This document shows positions 43,784 to 53,369 of a stretch of 64,000 bases of DNA, one piece after another. The notes below the pieces were generated by a model. It was given only the letters and a program-made list of their open reading frames with translations, was not told where the DNA came from and did no database searches. The translations under genes were made by a program, and so were the position numbers. The DNA is from an uncultured Bosea sp. (GTDB lineage: Bacteria > Pseudomonadota > Alphaproteobacteria > Rhizobiales > Beijerinckiaceae): NCBI RefSeq assembly GCF_945957345.1, contig NZ_CAMFKW010000010.1:9231-73230 (forward strand), in the 5' to 3' direction. The stretch's first letter is position 1; every line of letters starts with the position of its first letter.

Positions 43784-45130
43784 ATGAGTTCCCCCTCGCA
43801 CGGCCATGACCGCCTCACCGCCCTCGCGACCGCCATCGAGAATATCGAAGGCGTGACGATCTATGGCCGCGTCATCGGCGTGCGCGGCCTGCTGGTCGAG
43901 GTCGCCGGGCCGATCGGCACGATGAGCCTTGGCGGCCGCGTCGGCATTGAGATCGCGCCGGGCACGCGCGTTCCCTGCGAGGTTGTCGGCTTCTCCGGCG
44001 ACAAGGCGCTTGTCATGCCCTTCGGCGGGCTCGACGGCGTCCGCCGCGGCTGCCCCGTCCATGTCGATCGCGCCCAGCCGGGCTTGAGGCCGACGCCGGC
44101 TTGGCTCGGCCGCGTCGTCGACGCTCTCGGCCGCCCCGTCGATGGCGGACCGCCCTTGCCGCAGGGCGACACGCTCTTCGCATACCGCAACGATCCCCCG
44201 AATGCCCATAAGCGCCGCCGCGTCGGCCGGCCACTCGATCTCGGCGTGCGCGCGCTCAACACCTTCCTGACCTGCTGCATCGGCCAGCGCATGGGCATCT
44301 TCGCCGGCTCCGGCGTCGGCAAATCCGTGCTGCTCTCGATGCTCGCCCGCTATGCCCAGGCCGACGTCAACATCATCGGCCTCGTCGGCGAACGCGGCCG
44401 CGAGGTGCAGGAATTCCTCCAGGAGGATCTCGGCCCGCAGGGCCTCGCCCGCTCGATCGTCGTGGTCGCGACCTCGGACGAGCCCGCCCTGATGCGCAAG
44501 CAGGCGGCGCTGACCACGCTGACGCTTGCCGAGTATTTCCGGGATCGCGGCCTGCAGGTGATGTGCCTGATGGATTCGGTGACGCGCTTCGCCATGGCGA
44601 TGCGCGAGATCGGCCTCGCCGCCGGCGAGCCGCCGACGACCAAAGGTTATACTCCGACCGTCTTCGCCGAGCTGCCCCGCCTGCTCGAACGCGCCGGCCC
44701 CGGCACCGGCGACGGCGCCATCACCGGCCTCTTCACCGTGCTGGTCGATGGCGGCGACCATGACGAGCCCGTCGCCGACGCGGTGCGCGGCATTCTCGAC
44801 GGCCACATCGTCATGGAACGCTCCATCGCCGAGCGCGGACGCTACCCCGCGGTCAACATCCTGAAATCGGTCTCGCGCACGATGCCGCGCTCCTGTGACC
44901 CGGCCTATTATCCCGTCGTGCAGAAGGCGCGCTCGACGCTCGCGACCTATGCCGACATGGAGGAGTTGATCCGGCTCGGCGCCTATCGCCAGGGTGCCTC
45001 GGCCGAGGTCGACGAGGCGATCCGTCTCCATCCTGCGCTCGAAGCCTTCCTCAAGCAGGCCAAGGACGACGCGACGCCGCTGCACGAATGCTACGCACGC
45101 CTCGCCGCTATCATGAGTGGAACCGTCTGA
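43784..45130 (+). CDS. fliI: Flagellar export ATPase FliI
   Basis: [51 protein letters not shown] and [12 protein letters not shown]. Confidence 0.95.
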
Positions 45131-45483
45131 TGATCGCAGCGCTCCTGATCGGCCTCGTTGCGCTGATCCATGTCTACATCGTCATTCTGGAGATGCTGTG
45201 GTGGGACACCCCGCGCGGCCACAAGGCCTTCGGTCTCACGCCGGACTTCGCCGCACGCTCGAAGGTGCTTGCCGCCAATCAGGGGCTCTATAACGGCTTC
45301 CTCGTCGCCGGCCTCGTCTGGGGGCTCTGGCTTGGCGCGGAAGGCTTCGCGATCAAGCTGTTCTTCCTGGCCTGCGTTCTTGTCGCCGGGCTCTTCGGCG
45401 CGGCGACGGCCAGCCGCAAGATTCTCTACATCCAGGCCTTGCCCGCCGCGCTCGCCATTGTGGCACTGCTGGCTCGGTTCTGA
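45130..45483 (+). CDS. DUF1304 family membrane protein
   Basis: ALIHVYIVILEM...AANQGLYNGFL. Start overlaps the fliI stop (TGATG). Confidence 0.85.
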   Translation: MIAALLIGLVALIHVYIVILEMLWWDTPRGHKAFGLTPDFAARSKVLAANQGLYNGFLVAGLVWGLWLGAEGFAIKLFFLACVLVAGLFGAATASRKILYIQALPAALAIVALLARF

Positions 45484-45490
45484 GCAGGCC

Positions 45491-46759
45491 TCAGCCTCGC
45501 GCCACCATCCGCACCAGCGCGAACATCGCAGCGAAGCCGACGGCCTGAATCGCTGCCGAGATCATCAGCGTCGGGTTCACCCCGAGCCGCTCGACCATCA
45601 CCGCAAAGAGCAGCGGCGCTGCCGCGAAGGTCATGTTCTGGGGCACGGTGAGCTTGCCGAGCATCGCAGCGAAGCCATTCCGGCCGAACAGGGCGAGCGG
45701 CAGCGTCGCCCGCGCCACCGAGATCACGCCGAGCGCCGCACTGAACAAGGCGATGAAGATCGCCGCGGTCGTGATCGTCATCGGCACGAAGGGCAGCGCG
45801 AGGCAAAGCACCGGCCCCAGCAGCAGGCCGAACAGCGAGACCTTCTCCGCCGGCAGGCGCTCGCCCAAGGTCGCGTCGATAGCACGTGCGGCAAGCGTCG
45901 CCGGGCCGCTCAGGGTCGCGACCCAGACGGCCTCGGACTGCGTCAGTCCCGCCTCCTGGAACAACGTGATCAAATGCAGCGGCAATCCCCAGGACACGAG
46001 CCCACTCGCCGAGAAGGCAAGCGCCACCAGCCAGAAAGCAGCCCTGCGCGAATGCGCTGCCACGCTGCCTTGTTCGCTGGCAGAGGTCGCTCCGGCAACG
46101 TCAGCCGGCTTGGCCTCGGGCGCCGGCGCATGCCGGTAACGCGGGATCGACGCATAGATCGGCAGCACGATGACGAGCTGCATCGCCGCGAAGACGATAA
46201 GCGTGATCCGCCAGCCGAAGGCGTTCATCAGCGTGGCGGTCAACGGCCAGAACACGCTGGAGGCGAGCCCGGTGACCAGCATCATCAGGCCGATGACGCG
46301 CCGCGTCCGCTCGCCCATCAACTGGGCGATGGTGACATTGCCTGTATTGGCCAGCGACATCGCATGGCCGAGCCCGATCACGAGCCAGCTCGCGAGGTAG
46401 CTCACCGGTCCCTGCGCCAGCGATAGCACACCAAGCCCGAGCGCGCAGATCACGGCGCCCACGCACATCGAGCGCCGCGTGCCCTCGCGGTCGAGCACGC
46501 GCCCGATCGCGGGGGCGACAAGAGCACCTGTGATCAGCAGGATGGTAATGCCGCCGAAGACGATCTCGGCATTGAGTCCGATCTCGCGATCGAGCGCGCC
46601 GACCAGCACCGAGGGCGAATAGAAGGTCGAGCCCCAGCCGATGATGCGTGTGAGCGCGAGGCCCAGCAGCAGAGGGCCGTGCGCGCCGAAACGAGAAGTG
46701 GCAGCCAAGAGAGGGAATCCGCGGAGCAGGAGGCCGGGCGGCCTCGCCTCCCGATTCAC
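45491..46759 (-). CDS. MFS transporter
   Basis: RIIGWGSTFY, GLASSVFWP, FGWR and 12 predicted TM segments. Confidence 0.85.
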   Translation of the reverse strand: MNREARPPGLLLRGFPLLAATSRFGAHGPLLLGLALTRIIGWGSTFYSPSVLVGALDREIGLNAEIVFGGITILLITGALVAPAIGRVLDREGTRRSMCVGAVICALGLGVLSLAQGPVSYLASWLVIGLGHAMSLANTGNVTIAQLMGERTRRVIGLMMLVTGLASSVFWPLTATLMNAFGWRITLIVFAAMQLVIVLPIYASIPRYRHAPAPEAKPADVAGATSASEQGSVAAHSRRAAFWLVALAFSASGLVSWGLPLHLITLFQEAGLTQSEAVWVATLSGPATLAARAIDATLGERLPAEKVSLFGLLLGPVLCLALPFVPMTITTAAIFIALFSAALGVISVARATLPLALFGRNGFAAMLGKLTVPQNMTFAAAPLLFAVMVERLGVNPTLMISAAIQAVGFAAMFALVRMVARG

Positions 46760-46830
46760 TAGATCATCCCGACAACCCGTGGCAGCAGCCGGGGCGCGAC
46801 CTGATCATGCGTAAAAGGCAGCCCGTTCCG

Positions 46831-46846
46831 GTAAGGAAAGGTCAAC
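46831..46846 (+). promoter_or_regulatory. Degenerate CtrA box upstream of fliJ
   Basis: GTAA-GGAAAGG-TCAAC (two mismatches). Confidence 0.35.
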
Positions 46847-46942
46847 CTCCTTGCGCCATGTTGCTCCACGTCTCGCGTATGGAGTTCGGGCGCGCGCCGA
46901 GGGGTCGGCAGCGCCGATGCGTAATCAGGAGTTGAAAACGAC

Positions 46943-47347
46943 ATGAAGTCGCGAGAGACGCTTCTTCGGCTCAAGCGCTTCCAGGTCGACGAGAAACGTC
47001 GCCGGGTAAGCCAGATCGAGATGATGATCGCCGATTTTCATCGGATGGCGAGCGATCTCGATCGCGAGATCCAGGCCGAGGAATCGCGCGCCGGCATCGC
47101 GGACCCCGCCCATTTCGCCTATCCGACCTATGCCAAGGCAGCCCTCGGCCGCCGCGACAACCTGCGCCAGTCGGCCGACAACCTGAAGGGCCAGCTCGAC
47201 GAGGCCAAGGCCGAATTGCAGGAAGCCTTCGAGGACATGAAGAAGGTCGAGATTCTCGACGATCGCGAACGCGCTTCGGAGCGCGCGGCGGAAGCCGCCC
47301 GCGACCAGGCCACGATGGACGCGATCGGGCTGCGCTCGCGCGTCTGA
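46943..47347 (+). CDS. fliJ: Flagellar export chaperone FliJ
   Basis: MKSRETLLRLKRFQVDEKRRRVSQIE...HFAYPTYAKAA...FEDMKKVE, the alphaproteobacterial FliJ pattern. AGGAG RBS. Confidence 0.9.
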   Translation: MKSRETLLRLKRFQVDEKRRRVSQIEMMIADFHRMASDLDREIQAEESRAGIADPAHFAYPTYAKAALGRRDNLRQSADNLKGQLDEAKAELQEAFEDMKKVEILDDRERASERAAEAARDQATMDAIGLRSRV

Positions 47348-47367
47348 GCCCGTTTTCAAGAATTCAG

Positions 47368-47400
47368 AAAAAGGCGGCGTCCTCGGGGCGCCGCCTTTTT
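47368..47400. terminator. Bidirectional Rho-independent terminator between fliJ and the GNAT
   Basis: AAAAAGGCGGCGTCC-TCG-GGGCGCCGCCTTTTT. Confidence 0.85.
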
Positions 47401-48014
47401 CATGCAATGACGGGATGGTGCACGACGGAGTCGCGCCGCAGCTTGCCGCTCAGGCGTGGATCGTCGTCGACCTCGACCCCGCGCTTGAACACGGTGAAGC
47501 CCGAGCGCTGGTAGAAGGCGAGCGCGGCCGGGTGGTCGAGCGTGCAGGTATGCACCCAGAAGCGCGAGATCGGCTTGGCCCAGGCCAGCGCCAGCGCCCG
47601 GTTCATCAGCCAGCGCCCCGCACCCTTGCCGACCACGGGCTCGTCCAGCCCGAAGAAGGCGAGCTCGCCCTCCCCCGCCACGCGGAAATCCAGCTCGAGC
47701 AAGCCGACATCGCGCCCCTCATGGCGAACGGCGTAGACCTCGATGGCCGGGTCGGCGAACACCGCCCCGAGCTCGGCACGCGGCTTGGTCAGGCGGCTGA
47801 ACCACATCCAGCGCTCGCCGAGCAGCCGGTAGACGGCAAGATAGCGCTCGATCTCGGCGCGGCCGATCCCTTCGAGCGAAAAACCTTCCATGCCAGGAGG
47901 ATCGGGCCGCTCCGGCGGCCGTGCGAACATCTCCAGCGAAGTCACGATCGTCGCGATCTTGCCGGGCGGCAGGTCGGTCGTTCCGGTTAGGGTGATGGTC
48001 AGGCTCTGGGACAT
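47400..48014 (-). CDS. GNAT-family acetyltransferase
   Basis: LAFFGLDEPVVGKGAGRWLM and WVHTCTLDHPAALAFYQRSGF. Confidence 0.88.
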   Translation of the reverse strand: MSQSLTITLTGTTDLPPGKIATIVTSLEMFARPPERPDPPGMEGFSLEGIGRAEIERYLAVYRLLGERWMWFSRLTKPRAELGAVFADPAIEVYAVRHEGRDVGLLELDFRVAGEGELAFFGLDEPVVGKGAGRWLMNRALALAWAKPISRFWVHTCTLDHPAALAFYQRSGFTVFKRGVEVDDDPRLSGKLRRDSVVHHPVIA

Positions 48015-48054
48015 GGAAGGCAGGCGCGCTCGGCTCGAAAATCGGGATCGTCGC

Positions 48055-48075
48055 CGCGATCATGACATGATCGCG
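48055..48075. promoter_or_regulatory. Perfect 10-1-10 palindrome, candidate operator
   Basis: CGCGATCATG-A-CATGATCGCG, 20 bp upstream of ORF 48095 and 41 bp from the divergent GNAT start. Confidence 0.5.
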
Positions 48076-48094
48076 TTCGAAAGATCACGACGCA

Positions 48095-48517
48095 ATGATG
48101 CATGCCCGGCCTGAGAGCACAGACGGATCGAGGCGACGACCGCAAAGTCGTCGGCCCGCCAGCTGGCTGTTCGGCCTCCTGGTGATGTGCTTCGCTGTGC
48201 TGCCGCATCTCACGCTGGCAGCGTCGATGATGTGCATGCCGGTTCCTGCCCCAGAACACCATGCCGTGAGCATGCAGGCGACTTCGGGCGAACAGGCGCA
48301 CGCGCCGGCCCCCTGCCACAAGACCGGAGACGCGCAAGCAGCCGCAGGTCCGCCCTGCTGCATCATCGGCTGTGGCTTGATCGCCGAAGCCCCTGCCGCG
48401 CCCATGCGGCCGATCGCGGTCCGCTGGTCGCGGTTGCCGCCCGCCTCGGCCACGGTGGTTCAAGACCGTTCGACAGAACCGGCGGAGCGACCGCCGCGAC
48501 CGGCGCGTTTCGCCTGA
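48095..48517 (+). CDS. DUF2946/CopL/CutF-like exported Cys/His-rich protein with C-terminal RPPR motif
   Basis: Hydrophobic export signal, His/Met-rich middle, PCH and PCCIIGCG, C-terminal EPAERPPRPARFA. Confidence 0.65.
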   Translation: MMHARPESTDGSRRRPQSRRPASWLFGLLVMCFAVLPHLTLAASMMCMPVPAPEHHAVSMQATSGEQAHAPAPCHKTGDAQAAAGPPCCIIGCGLIAEAPAAPMRPIAVRWSRLPPASATVVQDRSTEPAERPPRPARFA

Positions 48518-48591
48518 AGCCGATTTTCCAGGGGATCACGATGCCGCCTCGCGGCACGGTCCGCCTATCCATCGATCAAGGATCTAGACAG

Positions 48592-48966
48592 ATGAAGCGT
48601 AACACCATTGCCCTCGCCGCCCTGCTTGCCGCCAGCCTGCTTGCCGGCACCGCCCAGGCCCAGCAGTCCCATGCGGGCCATGGCACCACCGCGCCCACGA
48701 AGGCTGGCGACAGCGCCTCGACCAGGGCCTATCGCGACGCCAATATGAAGATGCACAAGGAGATGGACATCCCCTATTCCGGCGATGCCGATGCCGATTT
48801 CGTCCGCGGCATGATCCCGCATCATCAGGGCGCGATCGACATGGCCAGGATCGTCCTGGCCCATGGCAAGGACCCCGAGATCCGCAAGCTCGCCGAAAGC
48901 GTCATCCGCGACCAGGAGAAGGAGGTCGCGATGATGAAGGACTGGCTGAAGAAGAACGGCAAGTAG
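48592..48966 (+). CDS. DUF305 (CopM-like) periplasmic metal-binding protein
   Basis: Signal peptide, HAGH, MKMHKEM, DADFVRGMIPHHQGAIDMA and IRDQEKEVAMM. Confidence 0.88.
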   Translation: MKRNTIALAALLAASLLAGTAQAQQSHAGHGTTAPTKAGDSASTRAYRDANMKMHKEMDIPYSGDADADFVRGMIPHHQGAIDMARIVLAHGKDPEIRKLAESVIRDQEKEVAMMKDWLKKNGK

Positions 48967-49125
48967 CCGCTCCTTCCCTCCCTTGACCCTGGGTGAGGAC
49001 GGGCAGTCTCAAATGCTTGCCCTCGCCCTTCCCCACTGGCAGAGAGGGGAAAGGTTCGCGCCGCAGCGGTGACGACGTGGGCCAGCCGTTGCCCGTCACC
49101 ATCCTGTTCAGAACCCGCGGCCTCC

Positions 49126-50163
49126 ATGAAACGTTATCTCGACTATCTCTGGCCGATCATCGGGCTCGTCGCGGTCGTCTGGTCCGTCGAACTGCTCTGG
49201 AGCAAGCTCAAGGCCGAAGCCGGCTCCGACGCCACGATCGAGGCGCTGCTCGCCGATGCCAGCCTCTGGCAGAGCATCAAGATCATCGCCCACCGCATCG
49301 GCCACAAGATCGCGGTGATCCCGCCGGAAGCCTTCTTCCATGCCGCGCTGGCGACGCTGGTCGCCTATGCCGCGCTCGCCTGGTACGACCGCATCGCCCT
49401 GATCCATCTCGGCAAGGAGAAGGGCATTTCCTGGTTCTATATCTCGCTCTGCTCCTTCGTGACCTATGCGCTCTCGCACAATATCGGCGCCTCGGTCTTC
49501 TCCGGCGGCATGGTGCGCTACCGTGCCTATACGGCGAAGGGCCTGACGGCGGCGGAGGTCGCCGTCCTCGTCGCGCTTTGCTCCTTCACCTTCGCCTTCG
49601 GCACGATCTTTCTGATGGGGCTGGTGCTGCTCTACGAGCCGCAGATCCTGCATCCGCTGGAACGGATGTCGAAATGGTTCGCGATCAGCGATGGCACGGC
49701 GCGCCTGATCGGCGTCGGCATGCTCGCCTTCGTCGCGCTCTACACCATCGGCTCGTGGCTGCGCTTCAGGCCGCTGAAGATCGGCAAGTTCGAGATCATC
49801 TATCCGCGGCTGCCCATCGTCTTCAGGCAGTATCTCGCAGCCCCGCTCGAACTCGCGGGCGCCGCCGGCATCATCTATTTCGCCCTGCCCGACCAGGGCA
49901 ATCCGGGCTTCCTGATCGTGCTGGGCGCCTTCCTGCTCTCCTTCTCGGCCGGGCTGCTCAGCCAGGTTCCCGGCGGCGTCGGCGTCATGGAGGCTGTCTT
50001 CCTGGCGGTGATGCCGACCGTGCCGGCACCGGCCGTCTTCGCCGCGCTGCTGATTTGGCGGCTGTTCTATCTCATCTTGCCGCTGGTCTTCTCGCTGCCG
50101 ATCGTGCTCGCCTTCGAGCGCGCGCAACTCAAGCGCAGCACCCGCATCGCCCCGCCGCCCTAG
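49126..50163 (+). CDS. UPF0104 / lysylphosphatidylglycerol-synthase TM-region (YbhN-like) protein
   Basis: YAALAWYDRIAL, YALSHNIGASVFSGGMVRYRAY, SQVPGGVGVMEAVF and ALLIWRLFY. Confidence 0.85.
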   Translation: MKRYLDYLWPIIGLVAVVWSVELLWSKLKAEAGSDATIEALLADASLWQSIKIIAHRIGHKIAVIPPEAFFHAALATLVAYAALAWYDRIALIHLGKEKGISWFYISLCSFVTYALSHNIGASVFSGGMVRYRAYTAKGLTAAEVAVLVALCSFTFAFGTIFLMGLVLLYEPQILHPLERMSKWFAISDGTARLIGVGMLAFVALYTIGSWLRFRPLKIGKFEIIYPRLPIVFRQYLAAPLELAGAAGIIYFALPDQGNPGFLIVLGAFLLSFSAGLLSQVPGGVGVMEAVFLAVMPTVPAPAVFAALLIWRLFYLILPLVFSLPIVLAFERAQLKRSTRIAPPP

Positions 50164-50208
50164 CATCGGTTCGAAAACTGGGAACCGGCTTTCGGGGCAA
50201 GCCGATGC
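50163..50208. repeat. Short palindromic intergenic repeat (Rhizobiales-type)
   Basis: GCATCGG...CCGATGC terminal inverted repeat around CGAAAACTGGGAACCGGCTTTCG, between convergent genes. Confidence 0.6.
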
Positions 50209-50221
50209 GCAAAAAAGGCCG

Positions 50222-51109
50222 TCAGCGCTTGAGCGCGATCGCCGCCGCGCCGAACATGAGCAACGCGCCGATCGCTTCCGACCAGCCGAAGGGCTCGCTG
50301 AGCGCCAGAACGCCGACCGCGACCGCGATGGCCGGGCTGACGAAGGCATAGAGCCCGGCCCGGAAAGCGCCCCAGTCGCGCAGCAGCCGCATATAGATGG
50401 TGAAGCCCATCAGCGAGCCGCCGATCACGAGGAAGACCACGGCCGGCAGGACCGGCCAGCTCGCCAGTGCTCGGACATCGGCATAGCTGATCGGCTCCAG
50501 CGCGAGCGAAACCGCGGTCAAGCCGATGCCGCCGATCAGCGTCTGCCAGCCGGCCAGCGTCAGCGTCGGCATCGTCCTGGCGATCGGCCGGGAGAGCACC
50601 GCGCCGACGCAGTAGAACAGCGTGCCACCTGCGACCGCCGCAAGCCCCATCGCTTCAAGCGGATCGCCATGGGCGACTGAGAGCCCGCCCATCGCCCGCG
50701 TCGCGAACAGGAAGCAAAGCCCGACGGTTCCGAGCGCAATCGCGGCGATCTTGCGCCCGTCGATGTGCACGCCCTCGATCGCCCGGCTGGCCAGCAGGGT
50801 ATAGATCGGGATGGTCGCGAAATTGACGATGGCCGCGAGCCCGGTCGGCGCGTGTTTCGTGCCCCAGAACAGCAAGGCATAATTGACGGTATTGAGCAGC
50901 AGAGCCGTGCCGATCAAACGGGGCCAGGCGCTGGCCGGCACCTTGGGCGCATCACGCCCGGCCCAGACCAGCATCAGGAAACCGGCGATCGAAAAGCGCA
51001 CCGCCGCCAGGAAGACCGGCGGCACATGCGTCGATCCGACCTTGACCGGCAGCCACGTCAGACCCCAGACGAGGCACATGACGGCGAAGAGGAGAGCGTT
51101 GCGCGACAT
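50222..51109 (-). CDS. EamA/DMT-family transporter
   Basis: VWGLTW, two EamA repeats and AFVSPAIAVAVG. Confidence 0.9.
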   Translation of the reverse strand: MSRNALLFAVMCLVWGLTWLPVKVGSTHVPPVFLAAVRFSIAGFLMLVWAGRDAPKVPASAWPRLIGTALLLNTVNYALLFWGTKHAPTGLAAIVNFATIPIYTLLASRAIEGVHIDGRKIAAIALGTVGLCFLFATRAMGGLSVAHGDPLEAMGLAAVAGGTLFYCVGAVLSRPIARTMPTLTLAGWQTLIGGIGLTAVSLALEPISYADVRALASWPVLPAVVFLVIGGSLMGFTIYMRLLRDWGAFRAGLYAFVSPAIAVAVGVLALSEPFGWSEAIGALLMFGAAAIALKR

Positions 51110-51192
51110 GATGTCCGCTTAGCCGCAGCCTATGGCGCTGACCATTGCGCCGCAGGCATCGCGCCCCCGTGGAAACGGGTGGCGCAAAGGGC

Positions 51193-53322
51193 TCAGACGC
51201 TGCCGACCGTCTTGAGGCGCACGCGCGGATGAATCTCGGCCTGCGACAGCACCGGCGTCTCCCGGCGGAAGCGCTCGATGATCTGGCGGGCGAAGGGCCG
51301 CGCCATCGCCGAAGTGACCAGCGCCGGCATCTCGCCGATGCGGGCGGCATCCTCGAACTTGTCGCGGACGTGATGCACGAATTCCTGCAGGCGCGAGGGC
51401 TGCATGGCGAGATGGCGATCCTCGCCCTGGCCGATGATCGACTCGGCGAAGACGCCTTCCCAGGCCGGCGACAGCGTGATGATCGGCAGCACGCCCTGCA
51501 TGTTGGAGAACTGGGCGCAGATTTGGCGGGCGAGGCGCGCGCGGACATGCTCGGCGATCTCGCGCGGATTGCGCATGCTCGCCGAAACCTCTGCGATCCC
51601 CTCGATGATCGTCGGCAGGTCGCGGATCGAGATGCGCTCGGAGAGCAGGAGCTGCAACACGCGCTGGATGCCGGTGGTCGAGATCTGGCTCGGCACGATC
51701 TCCTTGACGAGATCGGCATGGTCCTTCGGCAGCTCGCGCAGAAGCTTCTGCACTTCGGAATGCGAGAGCAACTCCGGCATGTTCGACTTCAACACCTCCG
51801 TGAGATGCGTCGAGATCACGGTCGCGGCGTCGACCACGGTGTAGCCGCGCAACTGCGCCTCGTCCTGCAGCGCCGCGTCGATCCAGGTCGCCGGCAGGCC
51901 GAAGGTCGGCTCCAGCACGTTGTGACCCGGCAGGTTCACGGCCCCGCCCATGGGATCCATCGCCATGTACTGGCCGGCATAGACGATGCCCTGGCCGGCA
52001 TCGATCTCCTTGATCTTGATGAAGTAGTGGTTCGCCTCGAGCTGGACGTTGTCGACGATGCGCACCGCCGGCATGACGAAGCCGAGTTCGGCCGCCAGCT
52101 GCCGGCGCAAGGCCCGGACCTGATCGGTGAGCCGGTCCTGCCCGCTCGGCGCGTTGACCAGCGGCAGGAGGCCGTAACCGATCTCGATCTTGAGCTCGTC
52201 CATCTTGAGGAGGTCGTTGAGCGTCTCCTCGCGTGGCGTACCATCCGCCGCGACCGTCCCCCCGGCCTGCGCCGGATCAAGCACACCCTGCTGCGCCTCG
52301 CGCGCCTTGGCCGCCTTGCCGAAACGATAGGCCAGGAAGCCCGCACCGGCCGCCAGCAGCAGGAAGGGCAGCATCGGGATGCCCGGTAGCAGCGCGATCA
52401 GCAGCATGACGGCGGCCGACATGCCGAGCGCCTTGGGATAGCTGGAGAGCTGCTTACCGAGCGCCTTGTCGGCCGCGCCGCGGACGCCCGCCTTCGAGAC
52501 GAGCAGGCCCGCTGCGGTCGAGACGATCAGCGCCGGCACTTGGCTGACGAGGCCGTCGCCGACGGTGAGCAGGGTATAGTTATGCGCCGCCTGGCCGAAG
52601 CTCAGCCCCTGCTGCGCCACGCCGATGACGATGCCGCCGAGCACGTTGATGAAGGTGATCAGCAGGGCGGCGATGGCGTCGCCGCGGACGAATTTCGAGG
52701 CACCGTCCATCGAGCCGAAGAAGGAGGATTCGTCCTCCAGCGCCTTGCGACGAACCTTTGCTGTATCCTGGTCGATGAGGCCGGCGGAAAGGTCGGCGTC
52801 GATCGCCATCTGCTTGCCGGGCATGGCATCGAGGGTGAAGCGCGCCGCGACTTCGGCGATACGGCCCGAGCCCTTGGTGATGACGACGAAGTTCACGATG
52901 ATCAGGATCGTGAAGACGATCACGCCGATCACGAAATTGCCGCTCATCACGAAGCCTGCGAAGGCCTCGATGACGTGGCCCGCAGCGGAAGTCCCCTCGT
53001 GGCCATGGGCCAGGATCAGGCGCGTCGAGGCGAGGTTCAGTGCCAGGCGGAACATCGTGACGATCAGCAGCACCGTCGGAAAGGCCGAGAATTCCAACGG
53101 CTCCTCGATGAACAGCGCCGTCATCAGCACCAGCACCGACACAATGATCGAGAGTGCCAGCATCAGATCGAGCAGGATCGCCGGCATCGGGAAGATGAGC
53201 ACCACCAGGATGCCCATGACGCCGACGGCAAGGAACAGGTCGGGACGGTTGAACAGCTTCCCGAGCGCGCCGCGATCGGGAATGGCGAAGCCTCCGCCCT
53301 GACCTGCCGTCACATCGGTCAT
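51193..53322 (-). CDS. flhA: Flagellar export apparatus protein FlhA
   Basis: FSAFPTVLL, RLALNLASTRLIL, KGSGRIAEVAARFTLDAMPGKQMAIDADL and FFGSMDGASKFVRGDAIA. Confidence 0.96.
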   Translation of the reverse strand: MTDVTAGQGGGFAIPDRGALGKLFNRPDLFLAVGVMGILVVLIFPMPAILLDLMLALSIIVSVLVLMTALFIEEPLEFSAFPTVLLIVTMFRLALNLASTRLILAHGHEGTSAAGHVIEAFAGFVMSGNFVIGVIVFTILIIVNFVVITKGSGRIAEVAARFTLDAMPGKQMAIDADLSAGLIDQDTAKVRRKALEDESSFFGSMDGASKFVRGDAIAALLITFINVLGGIVIGVAQQGLSFGQAAHNYTLLTVGDGLVSQVPALIVSTAAGLLVSKAGVRGAADKALGKQLSSYPKALGMSAAVMLLIALLPGIPMLPFLLLAAGAGFLAYRFGKAAKAREAQQGVLDPAQAGGTVAADGTPREETLNDLLKMDELKIEIGYGLLPLVNAPSGQDRLTDQVRALRRQLAAELGFVMPAVRIVDNVQLEANHYFIKIKEIDAGQGIVYAGQYMAMDPMGGAVNLPGHNVLEPTFGLPATWIDAALQDEAQLRGYTVVDAATVISTHLTEVLKSNMPELLSHSEVQKLLRELPKDHADLVKEIVPSQISTTGIQRVLQLLLSERISIRDLPTIIEGIAEVSASMRNPREIAEHVRARLARQICAQFSNMQGVLPIITLSPAWEGVFAESIIGQGEDRHLAMQPSRLQEFVHHVRDKFEDAARIGEMPALVTSAMARPFARQIIERFRRETPVLSQAEIHPRVRLKTVGSV

Positions 53323-53369
53323 CGACCGCTCCGCCCCACGCCTCATACGCCCCGAAGCAGGGCGCAGCT

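Follow-up and report, generated by a model that had tools for sequence, protein, structure and literature searches.

Leader peptides that sense copper, such as CutF and CruR, are a recently recognised way of reading periplasmic metal by means of the translating ribosome. To our knowledge, only two such peptides have been dissected, and they act in opposite directions. A C-terminal arrest motif (RAGP or RAPP) in an exported leader also occurs in SecM and in the RAPP-type peptides (ApdA/ApdP), which sense export force. Here we analyse a 140-aa open reading frame (ORF), designated the leader, and the copM-like gene immediately downstream of it, both situated in a 64,000-nt stretch of DNA (hereafter, the window) from an uncultured Bosea sp. 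(contig NZ_CAMFKW010000010.1, positions 9,231 to 73,230), and we compare them with these systems. CutF from Rhodobacter capsulatus, encoded in the cutFOG operon, is a Sec-exported protein of 118 aa that contains C69xxxC73 and has the C-terminus P109EPEGPPPRL118; its stalling at the Pro motif is induced by copper and sensitive to EF-P (PMC8456105, PMC9973294, 10.1101/2025.02.05.636593). Mutation of its CxxxC or of its Pro motif abolishes the copper-dependent production of CutO (PMC8456105, 10.1101/2025.02.05.636593). CutF was first thought to be a chaperone and was later described as a cis-acting sensor, the protein being undetectable in vivo (PMC8456105, PMC9973294). CruR controls a copper-repressed TonB-dependent importer (PMC9426467), and a fixed spacing from Cys to Pro is a hallmark of its family and is required for regulation (Roy et al. 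2022, PMC9426467). CopL, from Xanthomonas and Stenotrophomonas, is a small, cis-acting, Cys-containing leader without which the next gene is not induced by copper, and has been grouped with the CutF-like proteins (PMC9973294).

The leader-copM pair of Bosea is a good further example of the described CutF/CruR class and not a new kind of system. Judging from its sequence, the 140-aa ORF is on balance probably a cis-acting, co-translationally exported nascent-chain sensor of copper, whose dwell at PP-R(CGA) would set the expression of copM. The leader ORF (48095-48517, plus strand) starts with ATG and ends with TGA (48515-48517). Its product has an Arg-rich N-region and then the hydrophobic stretch WLFGLLVMCFAVLPHLTLAAS, with a hydrophobic helix spanning residues 21-46 (48155-48232, plus strand) that is a putative export signal or signal anchor (TLA-AS). 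The export signal, composed of the Arg-rich N-region, the helix and TLA-AS, was judged by eye, and the SignalP call of Sec/SPI for a Bosea ortholog has a low probability, 0.29 (Ozturk 2021 supplement). A Tat signal was considered and rejected, the SRRP of the N-region not being kept as a twin-arginine motif in the homologs. A patch rich in His and Met occupies residues 45-60, and it is followed by the motif P73-C74-H75 (48311-48319, plus strand), in which C74 is invariant and P73 and H75 reach a conservation of 90 % or more. The Cys block reads P86-P87-C88-C89-I-I-G-C93-G94; the part from C88 to G94 (C88-C89-I-I-G-C93-G94; 48356-48376, plus strand), containing a CxxxC that is a candidate copper-binding motif, is invariant in 32 aligned proteins, and C88 and C93 were still invariant in a wider alignment of 52 sequences. 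The candidate ribosome-arrest motif, E128-P-A-E-R-P133-P134-R135 (48476-48499, plus strand), has R135 encoded by the rare codon CGA and is situated five residues before the stop, with P133-P134 lying 6-7 residues from the C-terminus; only the unconserved tail PARFA and the stop codon follow (48500-48517, plus strand). A preliminary description of this DNA had attributed to the ORF a length of 140 aa, a His/Met patch, PCCIIGCG and a C-terminal motif, and all the motifs that it quoted were found. We also obtained an AlphaFold2 model of the leader from the family alignment, which is shallow. The helix of residues 21-46 is the sole confident element of this model, with a predicted local distance difference test (pLDDT) score of ~90; elsewhere, pLDDT is 42-57 and no structure is predicted. 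With the caveat of the shallow alignment, this lack of a fold beyond the N-terminal helix is as expected for a nascent-chain sensor, and not for a folded chaperone.

The leader resembles CutF in being a small, putatively exported protein with a central CxxxC, encoded by the first gene of a copper-related unit and followed by a short intergenic region with a stem-loop. Additionally, EPAERPPR from the leader aligns residue for residue with EPEGPPPR from CutF, the distance from Cys to Pro is 40 here and 42 in CutF, and remote relatives of the Bosea leader precede multicopper oxidases, as CutF and CopL do. There are nevertheless several differences. The downstream gene codes here for a CopM/DUF305 protein with a Sec signal, whereas that of CutF codes for the Tat-exported multicopper oxidase CutO; the tail past PPR has five residues here (0-13 in the family) and one in CutF; and most members of the Bosea leader family have PPR instead of the PPPR of CutF. 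Lastly, the stem-loop found here does not include the Shine-Dalgarno sequence (SD), which is predicted to be largely accessible, whereas the stem-loop of CutF shields it. CruR (BP2923, from Bordetella pertussis) is likewise encoded upstream of its target in a copper-related operon, is exported, as predicted for the Bosea leader, and carries a Cys motif at a fixed spacing from a near-stop Arg/Pro motif. However, CruR contains CxxC and a RAPP about three residues from its end, with 45 intervening residues, while the Bosea leader contains CxxxC (CCxxGC) and an RPPR five residues from its end, with 38-39 intervening residues; the intergenic region is of 162 nt with Rho termination in CruR, and of 74 nt here. 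By its description, CopL is similar in being a small Cys leader, and one remote relative in the leader family (P0075) is located upstream of genes for a cupredoxin, copA and copB, beside a two-component system; the downstream gene is copA-copB in the case of CopL and copM in the window. The C-terminal position of the motif in an exported leader, the unconstrained residues after it and the regulation of the next cistron, here putative, are also features of SecM and the RAPP peptides, although these sense force with RAGP/RAPP, in contrast to the putative sensing of metal with RPPR.

The pattern of conservation of the leader suggests where such an arrest might occur. Conservation ends abruptly at R135, and no residue from the tail reaches a consensus majority. 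Among 80 family proteins, the spacing between the last Cys of CxxxC (C93) and the first Pro of PPR (P133) equals 40 in 68 and falls within 40-42 in 76; the linker that separates these two residues is of fixed length and poorly conserved sequence. The E-P..P-P-R motif is present in all of 21 genomic loci, although the first position of R-P-P-R varies across the family (R/H/K/P). The Arg codon after PP (48497-48499 in the window) is CGA in 13 of the 21 loci; for comparison, CGA represents three of the 209 Arg codons (1.4 %) from nine neighbouring genes of the window, and nine of the 105 other Arg codons inside the leaders. Decoding of a slow codon right after PP is consistent with a programmed pause, and shared ancestry and RNA constraints could contribute to the use of CGA at this position. 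The fixed spacing, the abrupt end of conservation and the rare CGA are thus indirect signs that suggest an arrest leader of the CutF/CruR type.

The leader family is small. A word-indexed search of 5.8 billion proteins retrieved 31 homologs at E<=1e-3, mostly from Bosea and Hyphomicrobiales, and an exhaustive search of 1.84 billion cluster representatives with a hidden Markov model (HMM) retrieved 50 representatives at E<=1e-3; members range from 81 to 175 aa. Mean identity in the alignment of 32 sequences is 49 %, with C74, C88, C89, I90, G92, C93, G94, E128, P129, P133, P134 and R135 being invariant. Most of the 24 invariant residues from the 21 genomic loci use 2-4 different synonymous codons, which argues for selection at the level of the peptide rather than the RNA. 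Conservation extends to the N-terminus, M-x-H-x-R, in support of the long start at position 48095. From these patterns of conservation we conclude that the leader ORF is a real, translated and fast-evolving gene, whose strictly constrained parts are limited to the export helix, the Cys/His motifs and E-P-x-x-x-P-P-R, 40 residues past the last Cys. Some of the database gene calls for the leader begin at the internal Met31. The GC-rich sequence also produces an artefactual GTG-started ORF of 259 aa (48187-48966), which shares the copM frame and extends across the leader out of frame with it.

The gene downstream of the leader (48592-48966, plus strand) codes for a CopM-like protein of 124 aa, with a Sec signal peptide ending in AQA-QQ, a His-rich N-terminus and a single DUF305 domain. 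Its product matched Pfam DUF305 (PF03713; E 5.8e-19, 69.1 bits, cutoff 27) and the NCBIfam CopM metallochaperone NF049983 (E 2.1e-36, 123.8 bits, cutoff 90), and aligned with the solved CopM structures from Synechocystis, 5FFA and 5FEJ (E 2e-25). The start of copM at 48592 is backed by its SD, the signal peptide and the alignment of homologs. The gap between the leader and copM is 74 nt in the window, exactly as in the preliminary description, whose identification of a DUF305/CopM-like gene agrees with the above-cutoff Pfam and NCBIfam matches; the gap is of 72-91 nt in 20 loci. In Synechocystis PCC 6803, CopM is copper-induced and protective, and copM is under the control of CopRS within copMRS (PMC4335983). 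The CopM from the window belongs to the same family of DUF305 copper-binding periplasmic or extracellular proteins, but here there is no adjacent two-component system, the gene is preceded by a CutF-like leader and the protein consists of a single domain, with 124 aa. By analogy with the family, the protein from the window probably binds copper and participates in copper tolerance (PMC4335983). In every locus long enough to check, copM is situated directly 3' of the leader, and the order fliJ, GNAT gene (on the minus strand), leader, copM and mprF-like gene was kept in 19 of the 19 genome loci with enough sequence. In the distant family members P0058, P0060 and P0073, too, a DUF305 gene comes next downstream.

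In the mechanism that we propose, the N-terminal helix would target the nascent chain to the Sec translocon. With the ribosome at P133-P134, and the slow CGA codon for Arg coming next, CxxxC would be approximately the length of the exit tunnel away, with the PCH and His/Met segments already emerged from the ribosome. Copper bound to the emerging chain would then alter the dwell of the ribosome at PP-R, and this dwell time would set the expression of copM. As to the output, occupancy of the leader end by the ribosome would govern the fate of the G-poor, U-rich spacer and of the hairpin that follows, whether through access of Rho or a ribonuclease or through RNA refolding. We favour that copper raises the output of copM, which is the direction of CutF, because in Synechocystis CopM confers resistance and is induced by copper.

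After the leader stop codon there is a short spacer (48518-48530, plus strand) that contains GAUUUUCC. In 20 loci (L001-L020), the first 25 nt past the stop have 17.6 % G, versus 32.8 % in the background, and 28 % T, versus 15 %, and a UUUU(U)C tract is present in the spacer of most of them; this G-depleted and U-rich spacer is a candidate entry site for Rho or RNase E. Folding predicts a stem-loop immediately downstream (~48531-48566, plus strand), with an outer stem GGAUC/GGUCC and an inner stem UGCCGC/GCGGCA. The TGCCG/CGGCA hairpin noticed in the preliminary description is real and corresponds to the inner part of this longer structure (48542-48556). Most of the 20 loci have a hairpin of differing sequence in the corresponding place, and in the close clade the intergenic region is 74-85 % conserved, versus 68-80 % for the leader's own DNA. 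The SD of copM is AAGGA (48578-48582, plus strand), and orthologous loci have AAGGA or GAGGA 5-9 nt before the ATG; in the window, its predicted probability of being unpaired is 0.68. A pairing of ATCC with GGAT over the ribosome binding site had also been noted; the two sequences do exist (48567-48570 and 48580-48583, respectively), but their pairing is feeble, of 2-3 bp. Among the six closest relatives, the two C-G pairs are present in 6/6, the U-A pair in 5/6 and the A-U pair in 2/6. Anti-SD sequences of the CUUC type are found 3-7 nt before the SD in a sub-clade formed by L009, L012, L013, L017 and L020, where the distance is 3 nt, and also in L014; the SD of these loci has an unpaired probability of 0.01-0.46. 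Two other candidate elements were rejected. A long-range pairing between the region coding for PPR and the hairpin is part of the minimum-energy fold of the window and was otherwise seen only in L006, and we regard it as a coincidence of GC-rich sequence. Likewise, a scan for intrinsic terminators found none in the leader-copM region, neither at the end of the leader nor as the intergenic hairpin; the only two terminator-like matches were at ~50045-50062, and U-tracts follow the hairpin in few loci. A search of Rfam gave no match at E<=1 in the region 47900-49200.

Several observations weigh against the mechanism that we propose. PP-R is not, as far as we know, among the demonstrated strong arrest sequences. 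With P133/P134 as the stall site, the ribosome would extend no further than ~48506-48509 and cover neither the stop codon nor the hairpin, and the hairpin (48531-48566) does not contain the SD of copM. The fold z-scores of the intergenic hairpin are modest (mean -0.9), and no consensus structure was obtained from a global alignment of the 20 intergenic regions. In the closest clade, 96 % of the hairpin cells are paired and the sequence is nearly invariant; here, the analysis of covariation yielded a single compensatory pair, which is not above shuffles. The accessibility of the SD was computed for the 20 loci in three states, namely free RNA and RNA with the ribosome positioned either at PPR or at the stop: predicted accessibility ranges from 0.01 to 0.93 among the orthologs, and neither placement of the ribosome caused a consistent change across the loci. 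All the DUF305-paired loci with visible flanks correspond to one orthologous locus (flanked by GNAT, or in one case by a metallophosphatase), so that the linkage, however old and stable, essentially represents one evolutionary event and not a repeated association. Finally, no member of the leader family reaches the threshold of Pfam DUF2946, the best of the 32 having E 0.0065.

Alternative explanations concern both the peptide and its output. The GC-rich window holds many overlapping spurious ORFs, and several gene callers took shorter starts for the leader or assigned it no name, as might be expected if it were a chance ORF in GC-rich DNA and no gene at all. The probability of this is close to nil, because the idea is effectively refuted by the synonymous variation at invariant residues, and the conserved M-x-H N-terminus and the 50 representative homologs with the same architecture also argue against it. 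A real gene could alternatively code for a functional, small, membrane-anchored or periplasmic protein that binds copper and acts as a partner or chaperone of CopM, the Pro motif being an interaction site without any role in cis. The conserved Cys/His/Met residues, of ligand type, and the export signal agree with this possibility, which was the original hypothesis for CutF (PMC8456105), and the RNA elements offer no clear regulatory logic. We nevertheless consider it unlikely: there is no predicted fold past the signal helix, PPR marks the abrupt end of conservation and is followed by a tail of variable length, the linker is fixed in length and variable in sequence, and the rare CGA follows PP. 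Moreover, in the case of CutF the idea of a chaperone gave way to that of a cis-acting sensor, with an undetectable protein (PMC9973294).

With respect to the output, the preliminary description had proposed that the CutF/CruR logic applies to this locus, with masking of the ribosome binding site. The peptide half of the CutF logic is strongly indicated, the CutF-like size, CxxxC, C-terminal PP, short gap and putative export signal being present together with the parallel of EPAERPPR with EPEGPPPR; however, the RNA half, as it was proposed, is not supported. In a strict copy of CutF, the ribosome stalled on the leader would melt a stem-loop hiding the SD of copM, and the CUUC-type anti-SD from L009, L012, L013, L017, L020 and L014 would fit this design, the anti-SD of CutF being CTTC (PMC9973294). 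We find this very doubtful, because the SD of the window is predicted to be 68 % unpaired, ATCC and GGAT form a pairing of 2-3 bp and the main hairpin leaves out the SD; besides, the stall site is ~85 nt upstream of the SD, and no consistent opening of the SD is seen in silico with the ribosome on PPR or on the stop codon. Masking of the SD was accordingly rejected as a conserved feature, there being no consistent masking or unmasking in the 20 loci, and the fate of the spacer and hairpin is a more likely output step than direct unmasking of the SD. A different alternative is a polarity of the CruR type, in which stalling is constitutive and relieved by copper, and Rho then terminates transcription; copper would thus turn copM off, and CopM would have a role in copper acquisition. 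CruR itself works in this way (PMC9426467), and a CopM is treated in one published study as a metallophore that feeds the importer OprC (PMC11836926). In the Bosea loci, the stretch after the stop is G-poor (17.6 % versus 32.8 %) and pyrimidine-rich and precedes a possible pause hairpin, and the SD is unmasked in most loci, which makes a transcriptional output attractive. On the other hand, the intergenic region is only 72-91 nt long, half of it hairpin, compared to 162 nt in CruR; the spacer from the window is not C-rich (six C and seven G in 25 nt); the motifs and spacing are those of CutF (CxxxC, EPxxxPPR and ~40-42) and not of CruR (CxxC, RAPP and 45 intervening residues); and the Synechocystis CopM is copper-induced and protective (PMC4335983). 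A CruR-type polarity appears improbable, although it is a serious rival. We tentatively suggest, with rather low confidence, a third output design, in which the dwell at PP-R(CGA), set by copper on the chain 40 residues back, would decide the exposure of the spacer to Rho or a ribonuclease, thereby controlling the secreted CopM, possibly from a leaderless transcript under a palindromic operator. This design would differ both from the SD-masking stem-loop of CutF and from the long, Rho-dependent intergenic region of CruR.

The region upstream of the leader contains a perfect inverted repeat, CGCGATCATGaCATGATCGCG (48055-48075, plus strand), located 20-40 nt upstream of the leader ORF and after the divergent GNAT gene. 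The 64-kb window contains a single copy, against a chance expectation of 0.08, and no other non-coding element of the locus is as well conserved. Its core, ATCATGACATGAT, was exact in 15 of the 20 loci from the genome scan (L001-L020) and showed 1-3 mismatches in all other DUF305-paired loci that were checked; in the oxidase-paired relatives L026 and L027, no convincing copy was found 5' of the leader. This palindrome, with its -35-like TGACA, is a likely candidate for an operator and/or promoter element of the leader-copM unit. No convincing SD was found ahead of the leader ATG (48076-48097). In most loci, 5-8 nt separate this ATG from the end of a conserved GAAAGATC / GGAGACATC block; more speculatively, the block might be a -10-like element giving rise to a leaderless, or nearly leaderless, mRNA for the leader.

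Ozturk et al. define CutF-like proteins by a size of <150 aa (2023) or <170 aa (2021), an N-terminal Sec-type signal peptide, a central CxxxC or Cys-containing variant, PP within the last 15 residues and a same-strand downstream gene <100 nt away. The Bosea leader agrees with these rules in its size, CxxxC, C-terminal PP and short intergenic gap on the same strand. In fact, the supplementary neighbourhood table from Ozturk et al. 2021 includes A0A1N6S3Q9, from Bosea sp. TND4EK4, as CutF-like with an adjacent DUF305; the gene order at A0A1N6S3Q9 matches that of the window locus, with orthology deduced from synteny. The preliminary description had supposed that this pairing was undescribed, but it was already tabulated for this locus, if without discussion. 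DUF305 and CopM are absent from the main texts of the key CutF/CruR papers that were searched for those terms, and in the literature searched there was no paper joining DUF305 with CutF, CruR or DUF2946. The label of DUF2946-type, also given to the leader at first, does not hold in a strict Pfam sense, because the HMM search gave a sub-threshold match to PF11162 (E 0.066, 14.4 bits versus a gathering threshold of 23.7). This weak match is full-length, covering positions 3-111 of the 117 in the model. Of ten distant members compared with DUF2946, one matched at E 0.023 and nine had no match at E<=0.1, and P0028 carries the UniRef label 'DUF2946 domain-containing'. The leader had no match in NCBIfam, and a second word-indexed profile search, for relatives labelled PF11162, retrieved the same family only, without Pfam labels. 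Genes for multicopper oxidases follow the remote relatives (profile E ~1e-4), and the surroundings include copA-copB and CsoR; for instance, P0077 is placed between a CsoR-type repressor and a multicopper oxidase. In L026 (4001-4408) and L027 (880-1281), remote leaders are followed by multicopper oxidase genes after longer intergenic regions, of 303 and 138 nt, respectively, and these two loci might be useful for comparing the output RNA.

The concept of the leader, its family assignment and the adjacency to DUF305 were thus already in the literature or its supplements, and our analysis adds the invariant set of motifs, the 40-residue ruler, the observation on the rare codon, the misfit with SD masking and the conserved upstream palindrome. 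A compact and well-conserved third case would cleanly test which features of this class of leaders are general and which are variable: the Cys motif, the PP pause and the constant, tunnel-length spacing would belong to the former, and the RNA output to the latter. The target in the Bosea case is a different one, CopM/DUF305, a protein of debated function, and the intergenic region fits neither of the published output mechanisms; the value for specialists would rise only with an output step that turned out to be mechanistically distinct. In practical terms, 'CutF-like leader' is a more fitting annotation for the gene upstream of the Bosea copM genes than 'hypothetical protein'.

On the strand of copM, an mprF-like gene (49126-50163) follows it after 159 nt, with synteny in every locus examined, and it may belong to the same unit as the leader and copM. 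Its product, of 345 aa, contains only the transmembrane domain of the MprF-type flippase/LPG_synthase, without the synthase domain. The copper locus as a whole sits within a flagellar cluster (43784-53346), which includes genes for a FliI-like ATPase (43784-45130), fliJ (46943-47347) and, on the minus strand, flhA (51193-53346), and this arrangement is conserved across Bosea-type genomes.

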